NCBI GenBank assembly: GCA_012086945.1
Contig: GCA_012086945.1_3922.1
Direction: 5' to 3' (one strand)
From: a phage
Length of the DNA: 24,122 nucleotides
The notes beneath the pieces are model-generated. The model did no database searches and was not told the DNA's origin. It saw nothing but the letters and a program-made list of their open reading frames with translations. A program made the position numbers and the translations under genes. Position 1 is the stretch's first letter; each line of letters opens with the position of its first letter. This document shows positions 1,764 through 24,122 of this stretch, one piece after another.

Positions 1764-4463
1764 TTAGTGCACTTCAAGCCAGCTTTTACCAACCTTACCA
1801 GTACCTGTTACAAGTGTTTCTTTCTTAAGACCTAAATTCTTAGAAGCTTGTCCATAATACCAGTCAGTAACTGCTTTCACTTCTGCCGTCATACTTTCTG
1901 GACATTCCCAGCTTGTTTCATCGTGATATGCGCAGAGCAAACGAGCACCAATAGCTGGTTTACGACCATTTAACTTCATCAAACCTTCGTCAATCATACG
2001 ACGACAAGCAAGGTTAATTGCCTCATTTTGAATCTGAGCCTCTGAACCCATCAAAAGATAGTTCAACAGTTTGTGTGGAGATTTACACCACAACCAAGCT
2101 CCAGCAACCTTTACAAATCCCCCTTTAGAGATTGCAGCGGTCTTACCAAAAACCTCTTCAAGTGCCTTTTTAGTCGCTTTGTAGTCAGCTTCCAAGTCAT
2201 CTAGCAACTTCTTAATTTTAGGCAAACGAATAAAGTAAGTCTGTTTAGTCAGTGCACCTTCCTGAGTAGTTGCAGCTTTAATTGTCTTAGCAAACTTCTC
2301 ATCACCTGCACCGAACAGCAGTGCATAGATACCATTCTTAGCTTTTTTACGACCCTTACTAATCTCATGGAGAAGATTCTCATCCTGAGTGGCTCGACAA
2401 GTCAAGATATCCTGCTCATCATTCAAGCTAAAGTAAATACTGTTCAGTGTGTGTGCATCAGTCCCTGAATAGACAACGTACAGGTCATTCTCAGAGTCAT
2501 AGCGGAGGTACTTATCAATCTCTGGGTTGAGGTACTCATCAAAGTGTTTGCAGTAATAGCGTCCATCTTCTTGACGAATAAACTCAATCTCTTCTTTACC
2601 TTGCGTTACCGCTTTGGTGAAGTCTTTGTCACCCATAAAGTTACAAAGAAGAACTAGCTGGGCTGAGTTCATGTCTACAGAGACAACGTTAGTACCTTCT
2701 TCACAAATCCATACTGCCCTCATTGGTTCCCCATAGACAGCAGCACCAGACGGTACGTTTACAATACCATATTGTGTCATACGTCCAGTTGAAGTACCAA
2801 ATACCATTGCACCAGCACTAAGGCGACCATCTGGACGAATCTGGTTTAGCCAACCTTTTTCATCATCCTTTGAGTTCTCAATGGTTCTGCGTCGGTGCAT
2901 CAAAGTATAGTATTTAGCAATCTTCTGTCCAAGCTCACCTTCAATCGTATCATAAGAAGATTCAGTAAGTTTTGGTGAAGTACGGATTAAGCAAGGTTCA
3001 AGCAAATCCGTGTACTTCTTCACAGACCAGTTATGTTCGATGTACTGGACACCTTCGTGTTCAACATAACTCAACCCACACCGTTCAACCATCTCCTGCC
3101 ACTTAGGATGCTTTGTAATCATCTTTTTGTTGTCTTTGAAACGACAAACTTTGACAGGGCGACCGTCTGAATCTTTCTTGTAGTTCCAGTCATCTGGAAT
3201 CCAACCAACTGATTTCAAGTAGTCTTTAACAACTGCTACCTGAGTCATACGAGAAACTTCAAACTCAATTGGTGTATATGGTGCATCAATCAATCCTGTG
3301 TAGCGACTTGACTCAAGCTCAAAGTGGTTAACAACATGACTGTTATAGTACTTCACAGTTTTAACTGTTTTTACTGGCTTCCAGTCTTTGCATTTCTTAC
3401 CAATCTTTGCATTCAACTCATTGCAAATTGCACGAGCATCCTTCATTGCTACAAAACCCTCCTTGTACTCTTCACCAGTTACAGAGTTGGTTGGTGTATA
3501 GCAATTTCTCTTTTCAATGTTAAAAATCTTTGTAGTTGGCTTACCAAATGGCTTGATTTCATATGTCTGCATCTCACCGTTACGTACCTGCTGACGATAC
3601 TTCGTCTTAGGGTACTTGGTAATTCTCTTCAGTCCATCTGCGTGACCAAATGCTTCAACATACTCATTCCAAGCTTTTGCAAACTCTTCTCCAGTGACTT
3701 TACCTTTGGTCTTAATAGTTGGAGGAAGATGTGGTTCAACTTCTGAAGCAAGCTCATTAGTCAACTTGTCAAGTTCCTTTACATGGAACTCCATAAGCTC
3801 TTTATCAGCTTTCCAACCATTGATAGCTTGTTGACTCATCCAGAAAGATGTTTCTTTAGCTCGCATATAGGTTTCATAAGTGTCTATGCCACACTTCTTT
3901 AGCTTGAGATACTCATTATCCAGTGCGCGTTTAGTTTTGGCGTTAATACGGATATCTTCCACAACACGAGTGAAGATTTCTGCATTCCACACACCCCAAT
4001 GTTCAATCTCTGGTTTACGGACACCAACACGAGCACCCCATGCAGCCAAGCCATGAGCACCTTTATAGCCTTTTGGAGTTGGTCTATCCATCCACTGAAC
4101 ACGAGACTGGATAAGAGAATCCTGAAAGAAATTACTCCACGGCTTACACTTTGGATTATCAAAGTTCCATAAATCAGGTGCAATGTGATTGAAAACCCAC
4201 CAGTCATAACCCAGACCATTATGGATGCAAAGTCGTTTTGCCTTTAACGCAAACTCAACACCTTCACGTAAACCACCCTTAATGTACTTAGTGTACTTGT
4301 GACCGAGGATAGGCTCATCTGTAAAGACCCATACAGGTGGCTCTTCATCGTCAGATTTATAATCTGCGAAAGCCATTACGTGAACTTTAGTGAACTCAAG
4401 GAGTAAACCATCAGTTTCTGTATCACCAACTAAATGTAAGTTTTTAAAATCTACGTTTTCCAT
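1764..4463 (-). CDS. DNA polymerase, family A (T7 gp5-like) with N-terminal 3'-5' exonuclease domain
   Basis: Exo I motif VGDTETDG; motif A VVSVDMNSAQLVLL; motif B RKKAKNGIYALLFGAGDEKFA; motif C AYHDE; recalled similarity to T7 gp5 (e.g. YTPIEFEV vs YTPVEHVV). Start set at ATG 4463 (MENVDF...), preceded by AGAGGGAG; the track start at 4493 lacks an SD. Confidence 0.9.
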   Translation of the reverse strand: MENVDFKNLHLVGDTETDGLLLEFTKVHVMAFADYKSDDEEPPVWVFTDEPILGHKYTKYIKGGLREGVEFALKAKRLCIHNGLGYDWWVFNHIAPDLWNFDNPKCKPWSNFFQDSLIQSRVQWMDRPTPKGYKGAHGLAAWGARVGVRKPEIEHWGVWNAEIFTRVVEDIRINAKTKRALDNEYLKLKKCGIDTYETYMRAKETSFWMSQQAINGWKADKELMEFHVKELDKLTNELASEVEPHLPPTIKTKGKVTGEEFAKAWNEYVEAFGHADGLKRITKYPKTKYRQQVRNGEMQTYEIKPFGKPTTKIFNIEKRNCYTPTNSVTGEEYKEGFVAMKDARAICNELNAKIGKKCKDWKPVKTVKTVKYYNSHVVNHFELESSRYTGLIDAPYTPIEFEVSRMTQVAVVKDYLKSVGWIPDDWNYKKDSDGRPVKVCRFKDNKKMITKHPKWQEMVERCGLSYVEHEGVQYIEHNWSVKKYTDLLEPCLIRTSPKLTESSYDTIEGELGQKIAKYYTLMHRRRTIENSKDDEKGWLNQIRPDGRLSAGAMVFGTSTGRMTQYGIVNVPSGAAVYGEPMRAVWICEEGTNVVSVDMNSAQLVLLCNFMGDKDFTKAVTQGKEEIEFIRQEDGRYYCKHFDEYLNPEIDKYLRYDSENDLYVVYSGTDAHTLNSIYFSLNDEQDILTCRATQDENLLHEISKGRKKAKNGIYALLFGAGDEKFAKTIKAATTQEGALTKQTYFIRLPKIKKLLDDLEADYKATKKALEEVFGKTAAISKGGFVKVAGAWLWCKSPHKLLNYLLMGSEAQIQNEAINLACRRMIDEGLMKLNGRKPAIGARLLCAYHDETSWECPESMTAEVKAVTDWYYGQASKNLGLKKETLVTGTGKVGKSWLEVH

Positions 4464-4493
4464 TTTTACTCCCTCTAAAATCATTAACCTCAT

Positions 4494-4719
4494 ACATTAC
4501 TGCAAAAAATTATAAAAAGCAAGTTGACAATGTACTTGACAAGGTGTTAATCTTTGCGAAGTGGGTTTTACTTAAAAGGTTACTTAACAGTTTAACTATA
4601 CAGATACTTTAAAACTCTTAAAAGATTATTTAATAGCTTTTAAAAAGCTTTAAAGTATAACGTATAGAATACGTTAAGATAAAAGATTAAAACTTAATAG
4701 TTACTTAAAAGAGGCTTAC
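4494..4719. promoter_or_regulatory. AT-rich divergent intergenic control region
   Basis: Lies between the minus-strand polymerase and the plus-strand gene array. Contains direct repeats TTGACAA (4524..4530, 4536..4542), a minus-strand TATAAT (4509..4514), and an inverted repeat TAACGTAT-aga-ATACGTTA (4658..4676). Confidence 0.45.
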
Positions 4720-5142
4720 ATGCAGAAAATGTTTGTTCACCCAGACATAGCTGACTTTGTTAGAGCTTTGCAGAAGTTGGAAGAACTTGACATTGCTGCT
4801 CAACGGGAATATGCTCACCATCACAGGAGAATGGTTGATATACAACATGAAATAGAGTTATCAGAAGACTATGAAGATGACTTAAAATGCTCTGTGTTCG
4901 AGCATATGAAAGACGTTGCTATAGCTAGACGTAAAGCTAAAGACACAGTTGCTTTACTAGATTCTCTTAAAAAGAGGTTGCAAAGTGGTACAGACCTGTG
5001 TAATCTAGCGTCACTGATTAACGATGTTGAAACTTCTTGGGATAGGCACTATTATCCACGTTCTGAAAAGACACTTGACTTTTCTTCATCCGAAAACTTA
5101 AAATGTTCTAGGAAGAAACTTAACCAACTGAGAGAGAAATAA
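4720..5142 (+). CDS. hypothetical early protein (140 aa)
   Basis: ATG preceded by AAAAGAGG; first gene after the control region; no recognised motif. Confidence 0.55.
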   Translation: MQKMFVHPDIADFVRALQKLEELDIAAQREYAHHHRRMVDIQHEIELSEDYEDDLKCSVFEHMKDVAIARRKAKDTVALLDSLKKRLQSGTDLCNLASLINDVETSWDRHYYPRSEKTLDFSSSENLKCSRKKLNQLREK

Positions 5143-5143
5143 T

Positions 5144-5944
5144 ATGAATATCGATGTAGAAAAGATGCTTGAAGAAAAAGGTATTGACGAAGCATTTTTA
5201 ATCAATGCCGTAGAAAGCATGGCTATGATTCTTCGTGGTAACAACTATACAGAACAGTTTATGCCTGCAAGCTACAATCTGCCTAAAGACAAGTCTGATA
5301 ACGATGCTTTTGCAGAACAGGTTAACATGATGCTTTGCGACAAAACACTTGCTCTGGCATCTATTGCGGTTGGTGTTGATGCTCTTGCAGAGTTCATTTT
5401 TTATGAGATGCAGAGAAATGACTATATCAGGATGTCAGACGAAGATAAGGAGCTGTTGCTGACTAAGGACACTGATTTCATTATTGATACGCTTATCTCA
5501 TCAACAAGTGCTGTTATGGCTGTTCTTGAGAAGCGTATGGAAGAGAAACTTTCACGATATGAAAAACTTGATTGGGGCGTAGAAGAATTAAGCCCACGAA
5601 TCAAAGAAATTATCCAGCAAACTAAAGAGTCTTTGGAAGAAGCTATTGAAAATGACTCTGTAGCTGATATAGAACCTCTTCAGGTGAAAGTTGCACTGAT
5701 GATTCCAGCTATCTCTACGATGATGAATATCGTTGCACTAATACAACTTTCACAGATGATGGGTGTGAGTATTGAGTTCATTGAAGAGATGACTGGTGGC
5801 GTCAGTATGCAAGCAATCAATGATGTTTTGGTGAACATTGGTGCTTCCATCATTGAAGAGAAACTACGCATTAACTTCGGTGATGATTTTGTGAAGCAAA
5901 TCTCAGCTATGGCTGAAAAAGAGTCTGCTGAGCAACTGCACTAA
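5144..5944 (+). CDS. hypothetical strongly acidic protein (266 aa)
   Basis: Start 2 nt after the upstream stop; hand count gives roughly 50 Asp+Glu against about 23 Lys+Arg; followed by a terminator. Confidence 0.55.
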   Translation: MNIDVEKMLEEKGIDEAFLINAVESMAMILRGNNYTEQFMPASYNLPKDKSDNDAFAEQVNMMLCDKTLALASIAVGVDALAEFIFYEMQRNDYIRMSDEDKELLLTKDTDFIIDTLISSTSAVMAVLEKRMEEKLSRYEKLDWGVEELSPRIKEIIQQTKESLEEAIENDSVADIEPLQVKVALMIPAISTMMNIVALIQLSQMMGVSIEFIEEMTGGVSMQAINDVLVNIGASIIEEKLRINFGDDFVKQISAMAEKESAEQLH

Positions 5945-5961
5945 GTCTTTATAAATCTTAC

Positions 5962-5986
5962 AAGCCTCCTTAGTTGGGGGCTTTTT
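5962..5986 (+). terminator. rho-independent terminator candidate
   Basis: AAGCCTCC-ttagtt-GGGGGCTT stem-loop followed by a T-run, directly after the 5144..5944 gene. Confidence 0.5.
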
Positions 5987-6005
5987 AGTAATTAAGGGAG
6001 ATAAA

Positions 6006-6749
6006 ATGAGTAATATTATCGCATTTACTGGAAAGGCACGTTCTGGAAAAGACACCTCATGTTCTATTGTGAAGAACATCTTAGAGGATGAGTACGGCTA
6101 CAATGTTGCTGTAATGGCCTTTGCAGACAACCTTAAACTGTCTGCATCAAAGATATTTGACCTGACTTGGAATGACCTGTATGGTGAAACTAAAGAGACT
6201 CCGCAAGTATTTGACTTATCATATCCTGAACTGATGTTTAAAGTTACGGAAGCTATGGAGTTCACCTTCAGAGATGAACGCTACCATATGGACTTCAAGC
6301 TTATGTCAGAGTTAACCGGACGATTAATCATGGAGCTTAAGAAGGTTGCTAAACCTACCCTATTAACACGTCTGGGATTTAGTAAAAAGTATAAATTCTC
6401 ATCAAGACAAATTCAACAGATTTGGGGTACTGAAGTTGTCCGTAAAGTAATGGGCGACAAGTTCTGGTCTAAAGACCTTGAAAAAAGAATGGTTAGATTC
6501 CATGAAATGTGCTCACTTAGAAATCAATATGGTTTTGTCTTAATCAGTGATTTAAGATTTGACTCTGAAGCTGAATGGCTGAGTAGATTTGCACACCAAA
6601 CTATTGAAGTAAAAAGAGACAATGTGGACAAGGTTTCATCACATGTTTCAGAAAATGGGATTTCTACAAAATATGAGCGTGACATTATTCATAATAATGG
6701 TACTCTTGCAGACCTTGAGAACAAGCTAAGAGCCATCATTAAAGTTTAA
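6006..6749 (+). CDS. deoxynucleoside monophosphate kinase (T4 gp1-like P-loop kinase)
   Basis: N-terminal Walker A FTGKARSGKDTS matches the recalled T4 gp1 start (LSGVKRSGKDTT); similar length; strong SD AAGGGAG. Confidence 0.65.
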   Translation: MSNIIAFTGKARSGKDTSCSIVKNILEDEYGYNVAVMAFADNLKLSASKIFDLTWNDLYGETKETPQVFDLSYPELMFKVTEAMEFTFRDERYHMDFKLMSELTGRLIMELKKVAKPTLLTRLGFSKKYKFSSRQIQQIWGTEVVRKVMGDKFWSKDLEKRMVRFHEMCSLRNQYGFVLISDLRFDSEAEWLSRFAHQTIEVKRDNVDKVSSHVSENGISTKYERDIIHNNGTLADLENKLRAIIKV

Positions 6750-12343: not shown

Positions 12344-12364
12344 TAACTATTGAGAGAGAATAAA

Positions 12365-13648: not shown

Positions 13649-13976
13649 AGCAAAAAAGTTATCTTATGATGACATTATCTCAGGTGCTAAATTAGGTGTT
13701 GACAGTATCGGACAAGACGTTAAGCACGGTGACACAGTTATGTACTGTGACGACCGAAGAGGCAGAAGTGCAATCTTGTTTGGAAGAATTGTTTGCAAAA
13801 TGCGAGGCAATTACATTGTTGCAGACATGGATGTGAATGTCACACAAAAACTTGAAACAATTATGGATGCTAGTACACCATCATGGTTCCTGAATTGTAT
13901 GCACACCTCTTCAGTCACAAAGGTAAGTGATAAGTTTTACGATATGTGGCAGAATGAGCAAATTTTCAAGATTTAA
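13641..13976 (+). CDS. hypothetical protein (111 aa), GTG start
   Basis: GGAGA 6 nt upstream of GTG 13641; followed by a terminator. Confidence 0.4.
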   Translation: MSKAKKLSYDDIISGAKLGVDSIGQDVKHGDTVMYCDDRRGRSAILFGRIVCKMRGNYIVADMDVNVTQKLETIMDASTPSWFLNCMHTSSVTKVSDKFYDMWQNEQIFKI

Positions 13977-18129: not shown

Positions 18130-20274
18130 ATGAACAAAGTACAGATTATTAAAAAGAATGGCTCACTTGAAGAACCTGATATCAAAAAAGTTTTAGCGGC
18201 AGTAACAAAGTCAGCTAACAGGGTTGGATATAAAGAACTGCCACCAGATGTTACCCAAGCTCTTGAGTCAGCATTCATGAGGATTTTGGTAAAGTCCACT
18301 AAGCAGAATAATTTGCTTATCTCGGTAAATGATATTCACAGTATTGTTGAGGGTGCTTTGGCAGAAGTCAATCACGAGATTTATGAGTCTTACTCAACAT
18401 ATAGAAATTACCGTAAAGAGGTTGCTCAAAATTGGGATGAACTCTACCAGAAGACCAAAGATACACTCTTCTTAGGAGACCGAGAAAACGCTAATTTTGA
18501 CAGCAGTTTAATTTCTACAAAAGGCTCAATTATTCGTGGTTACCTGACTAAAGAAATCTTTAAACAGTATCATCTAACACCAGAGGAACTTGAAGCCATT
18601 GAGAAAGGCTTTATCTATATCCACGATTTGAGAGACCTGATTTTTGGTGGTATTAACTGTTGCCTGTTTGACATTGGTAAAGTACTAAAAGGTGGCTTTG
18701 AAATGTCCGGCATTGAGTACTGTGAACCTAAATCTGTACTGTCAGCGTTGCAGGTTATTGGTGACGTAGTACTTTCAGCAACTGCACAGCAATTTGGTGG
18801 TTTTACTTTAGCAGAGATTGATAAGGTACTTGTACCGTATGCTAAGAAGTCTCTATGCTATCATGCTGAGAAAGCATCATCTTATGGTATTCCTAAAGAG
18901 CATTACCACAATTATGTAATGGAGCAGTTACAAATTGAACTGACTCAGGGTTTTCAGTCACTTGAGATGAAACTAAATACCGTACCTTGTAGCCGTGGTG
19001 ATTTTGCATTCACAACTTTAACATTTGGTTTACTTGACTCAGATATGTCTAATGAGGATAATCGACTCCAATACATGATTGCAAGTACTCTCCTAGATGT
19101 TCGTATGAATGGACAAGGCAAGAGCAAAAAACCTGTTGTATTCCCTAAACTGGTTTATATTTATGACCAGAAGAGACATGATGAAAATATCTGTCAAGGT
19201 CACCTGTACAGTAAAGCCATCGAGTGTTGCTCTAAAGCAATGTACCCAGATTTCTTAAGTGTGTCTGGTCATGGTGCTGTAGTAGAGGCTTTTGAGCGTT
19301 CTGGTAAGGTAATTTCACCGATGGGTTGCAGAGCCTTTTTATCTCCATATCTTAATGAGGGTGGAGAAGAGTTCTACGTTGGTCGTGCTAACATTGGTGC
19401 TGTATCTTTGAACTTACCAATGATTTACCAGTATTCTAAAGAGAATGGTTTAGATTTCTGGAAAGAGCTTGATAAGCACCTAGAGATGATTCGCAACTTC
19501 CACAAGAAACGCTACGAAATGATTGCTAATATGCCAGCAAGTTCTAACCCTCTTGCATTCACACAAGGTGGTCTGTACAAAGGAACTAAGAAACCTACTG
19601 ACAAGGTTGGTTGGGATATTGTGAAGTCCTTCACAGCTTCTTTTGGTGTTACTGCGCTTGATGAGTTGTCTGTTCTTGCTGAAGGTAAACGACTTCATGA
19701 AGTTGGAAGCTATAGTTTTGCATATGATGTTCTGGCATACATCAACATGAAAATCGAAGAGTTTAAAAATGAAGATGGCTTCTTATATGCCGTCTATGGT
19801 ACTCCAGCAGAATCACTATGTGGGACTCAGCTAAAACAGTTCAGAGATATGTTTGGCGTTATCAAAGGTGTTTCTGACAAGGAATACTTTACAAACAGTT
19901 TCCATATGAATGTTGCAGCAGACATCTCACCATTTGAGAAGCAGGACTTAGAAGAACCATTCTTCCATATCTGTAGAGGCGGTAGAATCCAGTATGTAAG
20001 AGTAGCTAACCCAGAAAACTTATCAGCACTTAAAAGTTGTATTACAAGAGGGATGTTGAAAGGTTTCTATCAGGGACTTAACTTTGACTTAGCAATCTGT
20101 GAGCATTGTGGTAACAGACCAAAATCAGATGTTGAAGAGTGTGAAGTTTGTCACTCACATGATATCTCTGTGATTAACAGGGTGTGTGGGTATCTTGGAT
20201 GGACTAAGATTAAAGGTGAATCCCGAATGAACGATGCAAAAATCGCTGAGATTCGTGACAGAGTTTCTATGTAA
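18130..20274 (+). CDS. nrdD: anaerobic ribonucleoside-triphosphate reductase (class III)
   Basis: C-terminal zinc ribbon CEHCGN...CEVCHSHD and glycyl-radical motif RVCGYLG; 714 aa. Confidence 0.9.
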   Translation: MNKVQIIKKNGSLEEPDIKKVLAAVTKSANRVGYKELPPDVTQALESAFMRILVKSTKQNNLLISVNDIHSIVEGALAEVNHEIYESYSTYRNYRKEVAQNWDELYQKTKDTLFLGDRENANFDSSLISTKGSIIRGYLTKEIFKQYHLTPEELEAIEKGFIYIHDLRDLIFGGINCCLFDIGKVLKGGFEMSGIEYCEPKSVLSALQVIGDVVLSATAQQFGGFTLAEIDKVLVPYAKKSLCYHAEKASSYGIPKEHYHNYVMEQLQIELTQGFQSLEMKLNTVPCSRGDFAFTTLTFGLLDSDMSNEDNRLQYMIASTLLDVRMNGQGKSKKPVVFPKLVYIYDQKRHDENICQGHLYSKAIECCSKAMYPDFLSVSGHGAVVEAFERSGKVISPMGCRAFLSPYLNEGGEEFYVGRANIGAVSLNLPMIYQYSKENGLDFWKELDKHLEMIRNFHKKRYEMIANMPASSNPLAFTQGGLYKGTKKPTDKVGWDIVKSFTASFGVTALDELSVLAEGKRLHEVGSYSFAYDVLAYINMKIEEFKNEDGFLYAVYGTPAESLCGTQLKQFRDMFGVIKGVSDKEYFTNSFHMNVAADISPFEKQDLEEPFFHICRGGRIQYVRVANPENLSALKSCITRGMLKGFYQGLNFDLAICEHCGNRPKSDVEECEVCHSHDISVINRVCGYLGWTKIKGESRMNDAKIAEIRDRVSM

Positions 20275-21812: not shown

Positions 21813-21935
21813 GTCTCGTCGTAAAGTAGGTTATCGGTAAAGGCCACTTTACAATGTTCTACAGAACAAACTTAACCGTTTGGTGTCACTGAAGAGCAAC
21901 TTAAAACCTTTTGTGAAAAGATTGAGAGATATGAA

Positions 21936-22193
21936 ATGGGACTCTGGAATAGTTTTAAATTAAAAGTAAAAGCAGCACTAGCTTCATTAGGTATGCTCAC
22001 TGGTGTTGATGTGACTCATCTTATGCAGAATTTTAAGATGGATGAGAGGCTGGCTAATGAGATTATGGAAAGTATCTATGTAGGCCGTGGCAAAGGTGGT
22101 AAGAAACAAGCCCACCGCCAATCCGGTGCAGCAGCTATTAAACGAGCAGCTAAGAAAGCTCGTAACCGTAAACGTAACAAGAAGGTTAAATAA
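21936..22193 (+). CDS. hypothetical protein with strongly basic C-terminal tail (85 aa)
   Basis: C-terminus GKKQAHRQSGAAAIKRAAKKARNRKRNKKVK. Confidence 0.45.
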   Translation: MGLWNSFKLKVKAALASLGMLTGVDVTHLMQNFKMDERLANEIMESIYVGRGKGGKKQAHRQSGAAAIKRAAKKARNRKRNKKVK

Positions 22194-22195
22194 CC

Positions 22196-22516
22196 ATGAG
22201 CAAAGTTTATAACACTCGTAAATTACAGATTTTCGTACTGTGCCAGTTTATGGCTAAAGAATACAACTTCTACTATTGTGGTACAGGTTTTATTAGTGAT
22301 GATGATGGCTCATACCTCCCATTCAAAGAGGCTGTAAAACTCTTCAATGAAGAGAAAAGCTCTAAGAAAGATATTGAAAAGGTTAAGCTAACCTACAGCA
22401 AGAGAGATAAGAAGATTATCTGCCTAGATAACTTTGTGAAAGTTACTGGAGAAGCAAAAGAGTTTATGGATGAGAGTGAGATTTCATTCACAAGCATCTT
22501 GAAAGTAGCTCAGTAA
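22196..22516 (+). CDS. hypothetical protein (106 aa)
   Basis: Starts 2 nt after the previous stop; followed by a terminator. Confidence 0.45.
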   Translation: MSKVYNTRKLQIFVLCQFMAKEYNFYYCGTGFISDDDGSYLPFKEAVKLFNEEKSSKKDIEKVKLTYSKRDKKIICLDNFVKVTGEAKEFMDESEISFTSILKVAQ

Positions 22517-22527
22517 ACAGATACTAT

Positions 22528-22553
22528 AAGGGGACTGTAAAGGTTCCCTTTTT
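22528..22553 (+). terminator. rho-independent terminator candidate
   Basis: AAGGGGA ... TTCCCTT stem followed by TTTTT. Confidence 0.5.
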
Positions 22554-22567
22554 ATTTTGGAGATAAC

Positions 22568-23083
22568 ATGTATCTGTCAAATCTGAAACGTTCGGCTGCA
22601 ATGTCAGTTCTAAGACTCAGCTTTGAGGAACGTCAAGAGTTCATTGACTCCCACCAATACGACCCTTCTAACTCAAATCACATGATTCTCTGGAATCGTG
22701 AGAGCACTCGTGAAAGAGCACTATTCCGCTATTACCCACACTACACTATAGATAATTTGTATGAATGTTTTGTTGTGAAGAACACCATTACAGTTCTCAA
22801 TAAACTTTGCAGATACACAGATAGTCAATCCTTCACATTAGGTCACCACAAGCCTGTTACAAAAGGTGGTGAACATCACTGTGCAAACTGGTTTATTCAG
22901 ACTAAAGCTGATAATCAAAAGCAAGGAGATAGCCTTCTAAGCACTCCCAAGATGACCTATGAAGAGCAAGAGAAATATATCAAAAATAATATGCCAGATG
23001 TGCTTGACAACAACTATACAGATTTGGCAATATCTCTCCTGTTGAAGTTCGAGACAGTTTATAGGGCAACTTACAATGGCTAA
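22568..23083 (+). CDS. putative HNH-family nuclease (171 aa)
   Basis: LGHHKPVTKGGEHHCANWFIQTKADNQKQGD fits the HH-x-P-x3-GG ... N ... N-x-K HNH core. Confidence 0.5.
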   Translation: MYLSNLKRSAAMSVLRLSFEERQEFIDSHQYDPSNSNHMILWNRESTRERALFRYYPHYTIDNLYECFVVKNTITVLNKLCRYTDSQSFTLGHHKPVTKGGEHHCANWFIQTKADNQKQGDSLLSTPKMTYEEQEKYIKNNMPDVLDNNYTDLAISLLLKFETVYRATYNG

Positions 23084-23354
23084 AGAAAAGTGGGAGATTT
23101 TACCACTAGTCAGTGAGGGTGGTAATGGTTGTGAAATGTACATGATACGTGGTCATGTCCCAGAACCAATTGCACTTGAGATGGTAAACAATTTTACAGA
23201 TGGCTCTTACAAAGACTTGGGAGAACCAACTGTCAAGCAACAATGGGTTAAACCTGTACCAGACAGCACAGGTAACTGTAGTGTACTTTATCACGTTGTA
23301 GACCCTGCAAAATGCAAATCTGCAATGGCAGTAACAAACGTAACTTTTGATTGA
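23076..23354 (+). CDS. hypothetical protein (92 aa)
   Basis: ATG overlaps the upstream stop; weak SD. Confidence 0.4.
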   Translation: MAKEKWEILPLVSEGGNGCEMYMIRGHVPEPIALEMVNNFTDGSYKDLGEPTVKQQWVKPVPDSTGNCSVLYHVVDPAKCKSAMAVTNVTFD

Positions 23355-23366
23355 GAGAGAGAGAGA
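23353..23366 (+). repeat. (GA)7 dinucleotide microsatellite directly upstream of ATG 23372
   Basis: gagagagagagaga read directly from sequence. Confidence 0.9.
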
Positions 23367-23371
23367 AAACT

Positions 23372-23836
23372 ATGATTTTTTGCAATTCCCAGAAGCATGT
23401 AATAGAGATTCTATATAAGGAGTTTGGTACAGAGAACACCTTTGACTCAAATGAAGCAATTGATGTACTAAGAGAAAAAAGCCTCTTTATAAGAGGTCAA
23501 TCAATTAACAATGCTCGTGGCTACCTAACAGTGCTAAGGCAATCCGGTGTACTGATAACTGTAGGCCAAATAAAAAGTAAGGGGAGACTAAGCATCAACC
23601 AGATTAACCGAGCTTTTATGGAGAAACACCCACAACTATCACGAATGTTAGATGATGGACATGGGGAGGTAAAGAGCCTTCAAAAAACAACCTCGACCGA
23701 TGTTAATTCAGTTGACATACAACCAGATGTTAGGTATTTTATTGAGGATGTGATGTTTAAAACAATGGATGAAGCAGTTGAACACTGTAAAAAACATCTG
23801 ATTAAAGTTAAACGTGCAAAGATTGTTTGGGAATAA
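23372..23836 (+). CDS. hypothetical protein, first copy of a tandem paralogue pair (track 23351..23836 shortened to ATG 23372)
   Basis: The track start is TTG inside the GA repeat; ATG 23372 gives MIFCNSQKHVIEILYKEFGTENTFDSNEAIDVLRE..., paralogous to the next ORF. Confidence 0.55.
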   Translation: MIFCNSQKHVIEILYKEFGTENTFDSNEAIDVLREKSLFIRGQSINNARGYLTVLRQSGVLITVGQIKSKGRLSINQINRAFMEKHPQLSRMLDDGHGEVKSLQKTTSTDVNSVDIQPDVRYFIEDVMFKTMDEAVEHCKKHLIKVKRAKIVWE

Positions 23837-23869
23837 TACTTCAAAAACTTCTATTGAGAGAAAAAGAAC

Positions 23870-24122
23870 ATGTTAAGTTCATTTTACATAGCACTGACTG
23901 AGATTCTATATAAAGAATTTGGTACAGATACCATCTTTGACTCTAATGAGGCTATAAAAGCTCTCAGAAGTGGAAGTGACTGCCTAAGTAAAAGCCCTAT
24001 AGCAAACATTCGGTATTACTTGACCACAATGCGTAAAATGGGGCTACTGATGGCTGTAAGTCAGGGAACAAAAGACTGTGCTTCTCTATACCTAAACCAA
24101 CTAAATAAAATGATGATAGAGA
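23870..24122 (+). CDS. hypothetical protein, second copy of the tandem paralogue pair, 3' end truncated by window edge
   Basis: Hand translation MLSSFYIALTEILYKEFGTDTIFDSNEAIKALRSGSD...YYLTTMRKMGLLMAVSQ aligns with the 23372..23836 product; the nucleotide sequences are also similar. Confidence 0.5.
   Translation, partial: MLSSFYIALTEILYKEFGTDTIFDSNEAIKALRSGSDCLSKSPIANIRYYLTTMRKMGLLMAVSQGTKDCASLYLNQLNKMMIE

Follow-up and report, generated by a model that had tools for sequence, protein, structure and literature searches.

In bacteria, contingency loci built on simple sequence repeats slip within promoters, around ribosome sites or inside open reading frames (ORFs), giving rise to phase variation or to rheostat-like variation. 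Among bacteriophages, T4-type phages harbor promoter-early stem-loop (PeSL) cassettes, which bracket optional ORFs and mediate their shuffling (Arbiol et al. 2010, PMC2839356; Comeau et al. 2014, PMC4122927), and Felix O1 carries intergenic direct repeats among its small early genes, some of them promoter-like (Whichard et al. 2010, PMC3185647). Here we analyzed a phage contig of 24,122 nucleotides (nt; contig GCA_012086945.1_3922.1 of GenBank assembly GCA_012086945.1; the whole stretch is referred to as the window), in which two adjacent paralogous genes are each preceded by a GA-run ribosome-binding site, the first of them a (GA)7 microsatellite. Overall, we consider it reasonably probable that a slippage-prone GA ribosome-site junction bounds an optional, duplicated winged-helix cassette at the prsA gene, and that the length of the GA run is near-neutral or a mild modifier.

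As in PeSL cassettes, the optional ORFs have no assigned function, reside in a lytic myovirus and lie between directly repeated copies of a short signal for gene expression; their presence or absence differs between close relatives and the empty sites are precise. In contrast to PeSL cassettes, the repeat is here (17-38 base pairs, bp) a translation-initiation junction and not a sigma70 promoter with a terminator hairpin. Promoter-like and terminator-like sites in the cassette were not above shuffle expectation and none were found at the junctions, and a PeSL model of the junctions was discarded because such repeats did not exceed expectation. Since the repeated element is a translation-initiation junction, we regard the locus as an analogue of PeSL cassettes and not as a member. 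Similarly, the Felix O1 repeats occur in the same phage group and represent repeated intergenic sequence between small ORFs, yet they are promoter- or terminator-like elements of 39-57 bp found at other loci. Neither the Felix O1 genome paper (PMC3185647) nor a comparative paper on Felixounavirus mentions this locus or GA runs. With contingency loci the window shares a short tandem repeat placed in an expression signal, the unit number of which differs among nearly identical genomes, but here the host of the repeat is a lytic phage, the repeat leaves the distance between the Shine-Dalgarno (SD) sequence and AUG, the -35/-10 spacing and the reading frame unaltered, and no switch is evident.

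Judging from nucleotide similarity, the window derives from a Felixounavirus (Felix O1-like myovirus). Its positions 22500-24122 match 219 Ounavirinae records by megablast, mostly Felixounaviruses of Escherichia and Salmonella, with Escherichia phage vB_EcoM-Pr103Blw being the closest (96.5% identity across the whole query). Close to the window end lie the two genes in question, both on the plus strand. Paralogue A (23372..23836) starts with ATG and encodes 154 amino acids (aa), and the 5' part of paralogue B (23870..24122) displays 84 of 150 aa before the window end cuts the gene; in relatives the protein is 150 aa long, and full-length versions are found in Pr103Blw (L001:5367-5819) and as P0008. 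The initial annotation had proposed that the two ORFs form a duplicated pair sharing a conserved N-terminal block, EILYKEFGT-x3-FDSNEAI, to be checked by pairwise alignment at the protein and DNA level. Both levels bore this out. In BLASTP 36 of 76 aligned residues are identical (47%, E = 3e-21), the block falls inside the alignment, and both proteins match one family, phrog_29478, with E-values of 6e-70 and 4e-59. At the DNA level, a 69-nt block (23405-23473 versus 23900-23968, spacing 495) is 80% identical. These alignments show that A and B are true paralogues originating from a tandem duplication. A TTG at 23351, called as the start of A in the ORF list, was rejected: it lacks an SD sequence, overlaps the upstream stop codon and is in frame with the ATG at some GA counts only, while the ATG and its SD are conserved and the ATG is the annotated start.

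The junction preceding A, hereafter R (23330..23374, plus strand), consists of the last codons of a 92-aa gene, its stop, the GA run, an AAACT spacer and the ATG. The 92-aa gene (phrog_4726, 23076..23354, plus strand) is conserved and is kept in all relatives, with or without the cassette; its TGA stop at 23352..23354 is made of a T and the first GA unit of the repeat. The microsatellite itself (23353..23366, plus strand) fills the intercistronic gap and provides a Shine-Dalgarno-like GAGA at -9..-6. Although the initial annotation wrote this site as ATTGAGA(GA)7AAAACT, which amounts to nine units, the window reads TTTGATT(GA)7AAACT-ATG at 23350-23374, that is ATT followed by seven units. The second site had been given correctly as ATTGAGAGAAAAAGAAC-ATG and reads CTATT(GA)3AAAAGAAC-ATG at 23851-23872. 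It belongs to junction R-prime (23846..23869, plus strand), the inter-paralogue spacer AACTTCTATTGAGAGAAAAAGAAC, in which R recurs in degenerate form and the GA run is (GA)3 (23856..23861).

That the same motif stands upstream of both copies was likewise claimed before and is confirmed by register and by shuffling. The motif pair ATTGAGAGAGAGAGA / ATTGAGAGAAAAAGA has a spacing of 503, close to the spacing of the ORF repeat, and in the window and Pr103Blw the junction repeat (499-503) and the ORF repeat (495-498) lie in the same register. The similarity AACTT[T/C]T[G/-]ATTGAGAGA in the upstream regions has a shuffle p of about 0.001, and the B spacer of both the window and Pr103Blw retains AACTTCT-ATTGAGAGA versus AACTTTTGATTGAGAGA. 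These findings show that the ribosome-site junction was duplicated along with the genes, and for that reason the same motif precedes both ORFs.

Comparison with related phages indicates that the paralogue pair is an optional cassette located exactly at the translation-initiation junction of prsA. Alignments of most relatives to the window end at 23360-23377, within the GA run or at the ATG, and annotated loci hold 0, 2 or 4 paralogues between the 92-aa gene and prsA. No paralogue is present in SUT_S720, SME50 and most relatives from IMG/VR, where the GA run with AAACTATG is the prsA start itself. Two are present in the window, Pr103Blw and the Moogleviruses Mordin, Henu11 and KMM2, and four in Seyj1-1, fBSPA4, finno, JN01, ESCO49/50, CECAV_041, SP3 and RPN213. 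The Seyj1-1 array contains a repeat of 126 nt, made up of the junction and the beginning of the ORF, at a spacing of 877, hence the four-copy array represents a duplication of junction, long copy and short copy.

The boundaries are clearest in the Moogleviruses. Here a perfect direct repeat, 36 nt long in Mordin and 38 nt in Henu11, stands on either side of the cassette. Its counterpart in the window is R, and each repeat copy contains the final codons of the 92-aa gene with the stop codon, then TGAGAGAAATATT and the ATG. A synthetic empty site, composed of the Henu11 left flank, one repeat copy and prsA, aligned in one piece and end to end with more than 23 Mooglevirus and Suspvirus genomes, and Henu12, Sf14, Michonne and phiSUSP1 have exactly one junction copy. 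The insertion is therefore precise and comprises paralogue 1, paralogue 2 and one junction copy. In Felixounaviruses, the downstream junction copy has shrunk to the GA run and (A)AACTATG; in Pr103Blw the flanks are GAGAGAGAAAACTATGA and GAGAGAGAGAACTATGA, 986 nt apart. We refer to this junction before prsA, downstream of the cassette and past the window end, as R''. Signs of an insertion mediated by a homing endonuclease or a transposase were not found: the cassette holds phrog_29478 genes only, with no nuclease, transposase or integrase gene in it, and the flanking repeat of 36-38 bp, coding sequence included, is much longer than typical target-site duplications.

Such boundaries also raise the question of recombination. 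The GA-run sites could be recombination joints, either by offering short stretches of homology in common or by promoting recombination as homopurine mirror repeats, for which H-DNA formation was considered as a possible trigger; out-of-register exchange between the flanking runs would then give rise to most of the length heterogeneity. The break of homology at 23360-23377 would fit this, as would the choice of modules that directly follow the junction (prsA of type 1 or type 2, the cassette or, in L013, a different gene) and the presence of GA runs before nadV, a place of HNH gene insertion, and before an 85/88-aa gene with two divergent alleles. There is also the T4-type precedent of cassettes bounded by repeated regulatory sequences (PMC2839356). 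Among Mooglevirus flanks (L024, L027, L165), the two repeats of Mordin match each other and so do those of Henu11, yet the two phages differ from one another at 4 positions (ATTT versus AAAC), and KMM2 has one repeat of each type. This suggests that junction copies recombined or underwent gene conversion, or that the cassette was transferred along with its flanking repeats. On the other hand, ribosome sites are functionally conserved and would mark the ends of homology anyway. Cassette-less genomes with a single run vary too (4 to 6 units), and R changes while R'' stays at (GA)4 in near-identical genomes, where no reciprocal length relation between the two flanking runs, as predicted by unequal exchange, was found. 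As the main source of length heterogeneity, such exchange seems to us improbable. A further mosaic joint at a GA-run site is found at 21921-21935, the ribosome site of the 85-aa basic protein gene (21936..22193), which has 3-6 units among relatives. At this point the small basic protein gene downstream starts as one of two allelic forms that diverge strongly, MGLWNSFKLK... or MGILGNMKAGF....

Having delimited the junctions, we turn to the length of their GA runs, for which about 45 junction sequences were compared. Junction R has 3, 4 (the mode), 5, 6 or 7 units in 25 relatives, together with a few point-interrupted forms, and the (GA)7 of the window is the longest allele found. The distance from stop to ATG accordingly grows in 2-nt steps (9, 11, 13, 15 and 17 nt), aside from one TAA variant with 10 nt. 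R'' has 3, 4, 4, 5, 5, 6, 7 and 9 units and two interrupted forms in cassette-bearing phages. GA count and cassette presence did not correlate, with 3-7 units in cassette-bearing loci and 3-6 in empty sites. A metagenome scan anchored on the 15-nt ATGGCAGTAACAAAC was of little use, as the anchor was too short and nearly all listed loci were chance matches, with L109 the sole true relative.

The most informative comparison is provided by near-identical genomes. An exact-protein look-up yielded ten independent assemblies encoding an ORF A protein identical to that of the window; DNA identity to the window is no lower than 99.8% in ORF A and 98.8% in the ORF B part. Their R run has 4 units in one assembly, 5 in five and 6 in four, versus 7 in the window. 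In four of them (L179, L183, L184 and L185) all 718 nt of ORF sequence on either side of the junctions (ORF A and the ORF B part) agree with the window at 100% identity, and yet the run has 6, 6, 6 and 5 units, which means that the R run changes faster than point substitutions accumulate. The suggestion of repeat slippage in the initial annotation, for which GA lengths were to be compared across isolates, is thus supported by (GA)4-7 alleles among 11 sequences of such identity. In the same 11 sequences, window included, R-prime is invariably (GA)3, therefore only the run of the first copy is mutable. The (GA)4 form of R'' is invariant in seven of seven near-identical genomes, in which R differs at 5-7 units.

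Could these differences stem from errors in sequencing or assembly, and the resemblance of the ORFs from chance? The records come from many laboratories and platforms, and repeats are prone to miscalls. However, runs of 6-18 nt are far below read and assembly k-mer length, the alleles differ in clean 2-nt steps and are common to independent assemblies, and other GA runs are invariant in the same assemblies, and the alignment of the two ORFs and their match to one PHROG speak against chance resemblance. We consider this explanation effectively refuted.

GA runs serve as ribosome sites elsewhere in the window. By crude gene calling most window genes use GGAG or GAGG-type sites, but GA-run sites stand 6-8 nt (run end to ATG) before five starts, at 5144, 12365, 21936, 23372 and 23870, and the prsA and nadV genes of relatives have GA-run ribosome sites as well. 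The motif GAGAGAGA occurs six times in the window versus 1.2 expected, a count reached in none of 100 shuffles. The 9-mer ATTGAGAGA occurs four times versus 0.42 expected (12349-12357, 21921-21929, 23350-23358 and 23853-23861), all on the coding strand and with the motif end 7-14 nt before ATG; this recurrence may reflect a context favored for initiation, or a trace left behind as the junction was copied repeatedly. Not all of these sites vary. At 5130 and 12352 the run is (GA)4 without exception, in 11-12 and 7 relatives, respectively, and also in seven of seven genomes of the ~24 kb alignment, which rules out that every GA-run ribosome site is hypervariable. Other variable sites are those of the 85/88-aa gene (3-6 units) and one nadV run of 6 units. 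Taken together, runs of 3-4 units mostly keep their length, and instability sets in at 5 units. Stability that tracks run length is the expected signature of length-dependent replication slippage, which is the mechanism that the alleles point to.

What would such changes mean for translation? The initial annotation had envisaged tuning of the duplicated genes, and a stronger form of this idea is a contingency-type rheostat, in which selection keeps the GA tract long and mutable and the unit number tunes translation of the cassette and of prsA-nadV for host adaptation. The prsA and nadV genes provide phosphoribosyl pyrophosphate (PRPP) and nicotinamide adenine dinucleotide (NAD+) salvage. In favor of a rheostat, the runs are placed exactly between the stop codon and the SD-AUG in an operon that continues into prsA and nadV, they exceed all other GA runs in polymorphism across the ~24 kb compared in seven genomes, they differ among genomes that are otherwise locally identical, and modelled SD pairing steps up from 3 to 4 units, with predicted accessibility growing with unit number. 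Against it, the SD-to-AUG spacing is invariant, since the GA-AAACT-ATG 3' edge is unchanged in all alleles, with GAG at -9..-7 and thus at normal SD spacing; only the stop-to-start distance varies. The GA run lies outside both ORFs, and the intercistronic distance spans about 9-23 nt across alleles. Unit changes that alter promoter or SD spacing or the reading frame, as contingency loci would show, were not found at the junction. In a crude model, the predicted duplex with the anti-SD has -2.9 kcal/mol at three or fewer units and -5.5 at four or more, then remains flat, so that predicted pairing does not change where most of the variation falls. In addition, the polymorphism conforms to the rule that longer runs are less stable, which would be expected in the absence of selection, and Moogleviruses hold a stable (GA)3 at the same site. 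On balance, a selected rheostat appears unlikely. RNA structure hiding the ribosome site was considered as well and rejected, as the local fold of 23273-23436 was no better than shuffles (z = -0.88). The fixed 3' edge and the pairing plateau suggest that any translational tuning is probably modest, and we regard a mild quantitative effect on translation as possible and a large one as unlikely.

On the slippage reading that we favor, the region is the left edge of an optional two-gene cassette holding two diverged paralogues of a small protein restricted to Ounavirinae. The junction, made of the stop of the 92-aa gene, a GA-run Shine-Dalgarno, an A-rich spacer and ATG, was copied along with the genes, leaving one copy before A, a decayed one before B and another before prsA past the window end. 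Once above about 4 units, the GA run would mutate by replication slippage, (GA)7 before A being one such allele, whereas (GA)3 before B would be too short for slippage and hence stable. Added units would lengthen the tract away from the fixed GA-AAACT-ATG edge, keeping the spacing from site to start optimal, and length changes would be close to neutral or, at the most, modify coupled translation mildly and by degree, with no on/off switch.

Several points weigh against this account. The two cassette-flanking runs are the most variable GA runs found, and length dependence may not be the whole story, with recombination between the flanking runs contributing. The same crude model that yields the pairing plateau predicts SD accessibility to rise from 0.14 at three units to 0.56 at seven, and the view of a modest effect is derived from geometry and this thermodynamic model. 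Sampling was partial, the junctions compared being drawn from more than 219 known genomes, and the window ends before R'', its own right-hand GA run being extrapolated from near-identical genomes. It is conceivable, though we give it little credence, that GA-run sites of Ounavirinae are dual-purpose, serving both as module joints (for the paralogue cassette, prsA alleles and HNH genes) and as hypermutable rheostats of cassette and prsA-nadV translation.

The protein family of the cassette is narrow. With ORF A as tblastn query it was found in 16 of 50,697 phage records, all Ounavirinae, and each of these carries it in 2 or 4 places and never in one. All cassette copies match phrog_29478, and the family amounts to 7 clusters in a set of 5.8 billion proteins and, by an exhaustive search with a hidden Markov model, to 4 representatives in one of 1.84 billion. 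Where four copies are present, start-stop coupling joins the short copy to the long copy, and this coupling along with the constant pairing suggests that the copies may work together. AlphaFold, given the family alignment, predicts for A an N-terminal winged helix (approximately residues 5-78, with a predicted local distance difference test score, pLDDT, of 77-90) in which the order H1-b1-H2-H3-b2-b3 is present, then a disordered linker (residues 97-120) and a small C-terminal domain of a beta-hairpin and a helix. Nucleic-acid binding by the cassette proteins would be in keeping with this predicted fold. The cassette proteins had no Pfam match at the cut-off, no PADLOC match and no NCBIfam-type name, and structure searches returned only the generic winged-helix fold without a named family in PDB, and only family members and generic helix-turn-helix proteins in BFVD, at 6-20% sequence identity to the matches. 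Compared with winged-helix regulators (Fur/PerR, MecI/BlaI, MarR and PadR) and the winged-helix domains of ORC/Cdc6, the cassette proteins are without membership in any of these sequence families.

The most conserved part of the family is the C-terminal motif F-x5-F-x-[TS]-x3-A-[VI]-E-[HY]-C-K-x3-I-x2-K-x3-[IV]-[IV]-W-E, although no structural match was found for the C-terminal module. It is the only part in common with a distant relative, P0010, encoded at another locus of another Ounavirinae-like contig (L159). There, direct repeats of ~70 nt at 5915-6002 and 6380-6450 flank the gene, each with a TAACTA(A)GAGAAAA ribosome site preceded by a leader and by a sigma70-like promoter (TTGACG-N17-TATAAT), an arrangement that is PeSL-like. 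In RPN213, the third paralogue (L164 4343-4807) is annotated as a shortened ORF (4502-4807), possibly due to a disrupting mutation; if so, this would be consistent with the cassette genes being dispensable.

The surrounding gene content of the window and its relatives matches the replication and nucleotide-metabolism region of Felix O1, with genes for DNA polymerase, deoxynucleoside monophosphate kinase, primase/helicase, nrdA/B, glutaredoxin, nrdD and nrdG, and with prsA and then nadV directly past the window end. Around the cassette site the operon order is 171-aa gene, 92-aa gene, prsA and nadV. The 171-aa gene (phrog_3500, 22568..23083), two genes upstream of the cassette site, is conserved and kept regardless of cassette presence; its product carries GHHKPVTKGGEHHCANWFIQTKADNQKQG, an HNH-like motif, with weak matches to HNH endonuclease PHROGs (E = 6e-4). 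Upstream of it, at approximately 22528-22560, a terminator-like hairpin (AAGGGAAC...GTTCCCTT followed by a T-run, which differs by 1 nt in RPN213) adjoins a promoter-like site. This is probably the start of the operon containing the cassette, which is presumably transcribed from there. Both nrdD (18130..20274) and the DNA polymerase gene (1764..4493, minus strand) are intact in the window. In relatives, inserted genes for HNH or other endonucleases interrupt nrdD (SME50, SUT_S720 and RPN213) and the DNA polymerase gene (RPN213 and Seyj1-1). An in-frame CAT (His codon) trinucleotide repeat at about 13875-13890 differs in unit number among seven relatives.

The GA tract at the cassette edge is real but a fairly ordinary mutable repeat. 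If it only drifts, the locus is a well-bounded case of a lytic phage gaining, duplicating and losing accessory genes by copying a translation-initiation junction, and an example of a dinucleotide microsatellite mutating faster than its surroundings. Felixounaviruses serve in the biocontrol of Salmonella and E. coli, and the fast-mutating GA run is usable as a fine-scale strain marker for them. If, however, tract length affects coupled translation, the locus would represent a rare repeat-based variation of expression in a virulent phage, upstream of genes that feed NAD+ and PRPP metabolism, and were the dual-purpose reading true, a strictly lytic phage would have heritable, rapidly reversible expression adjusted to its host. 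The paralogue family itself, a narrow and uncharacterised predicted winged-helix protein that is always paired, is tractable for the discovery of function.

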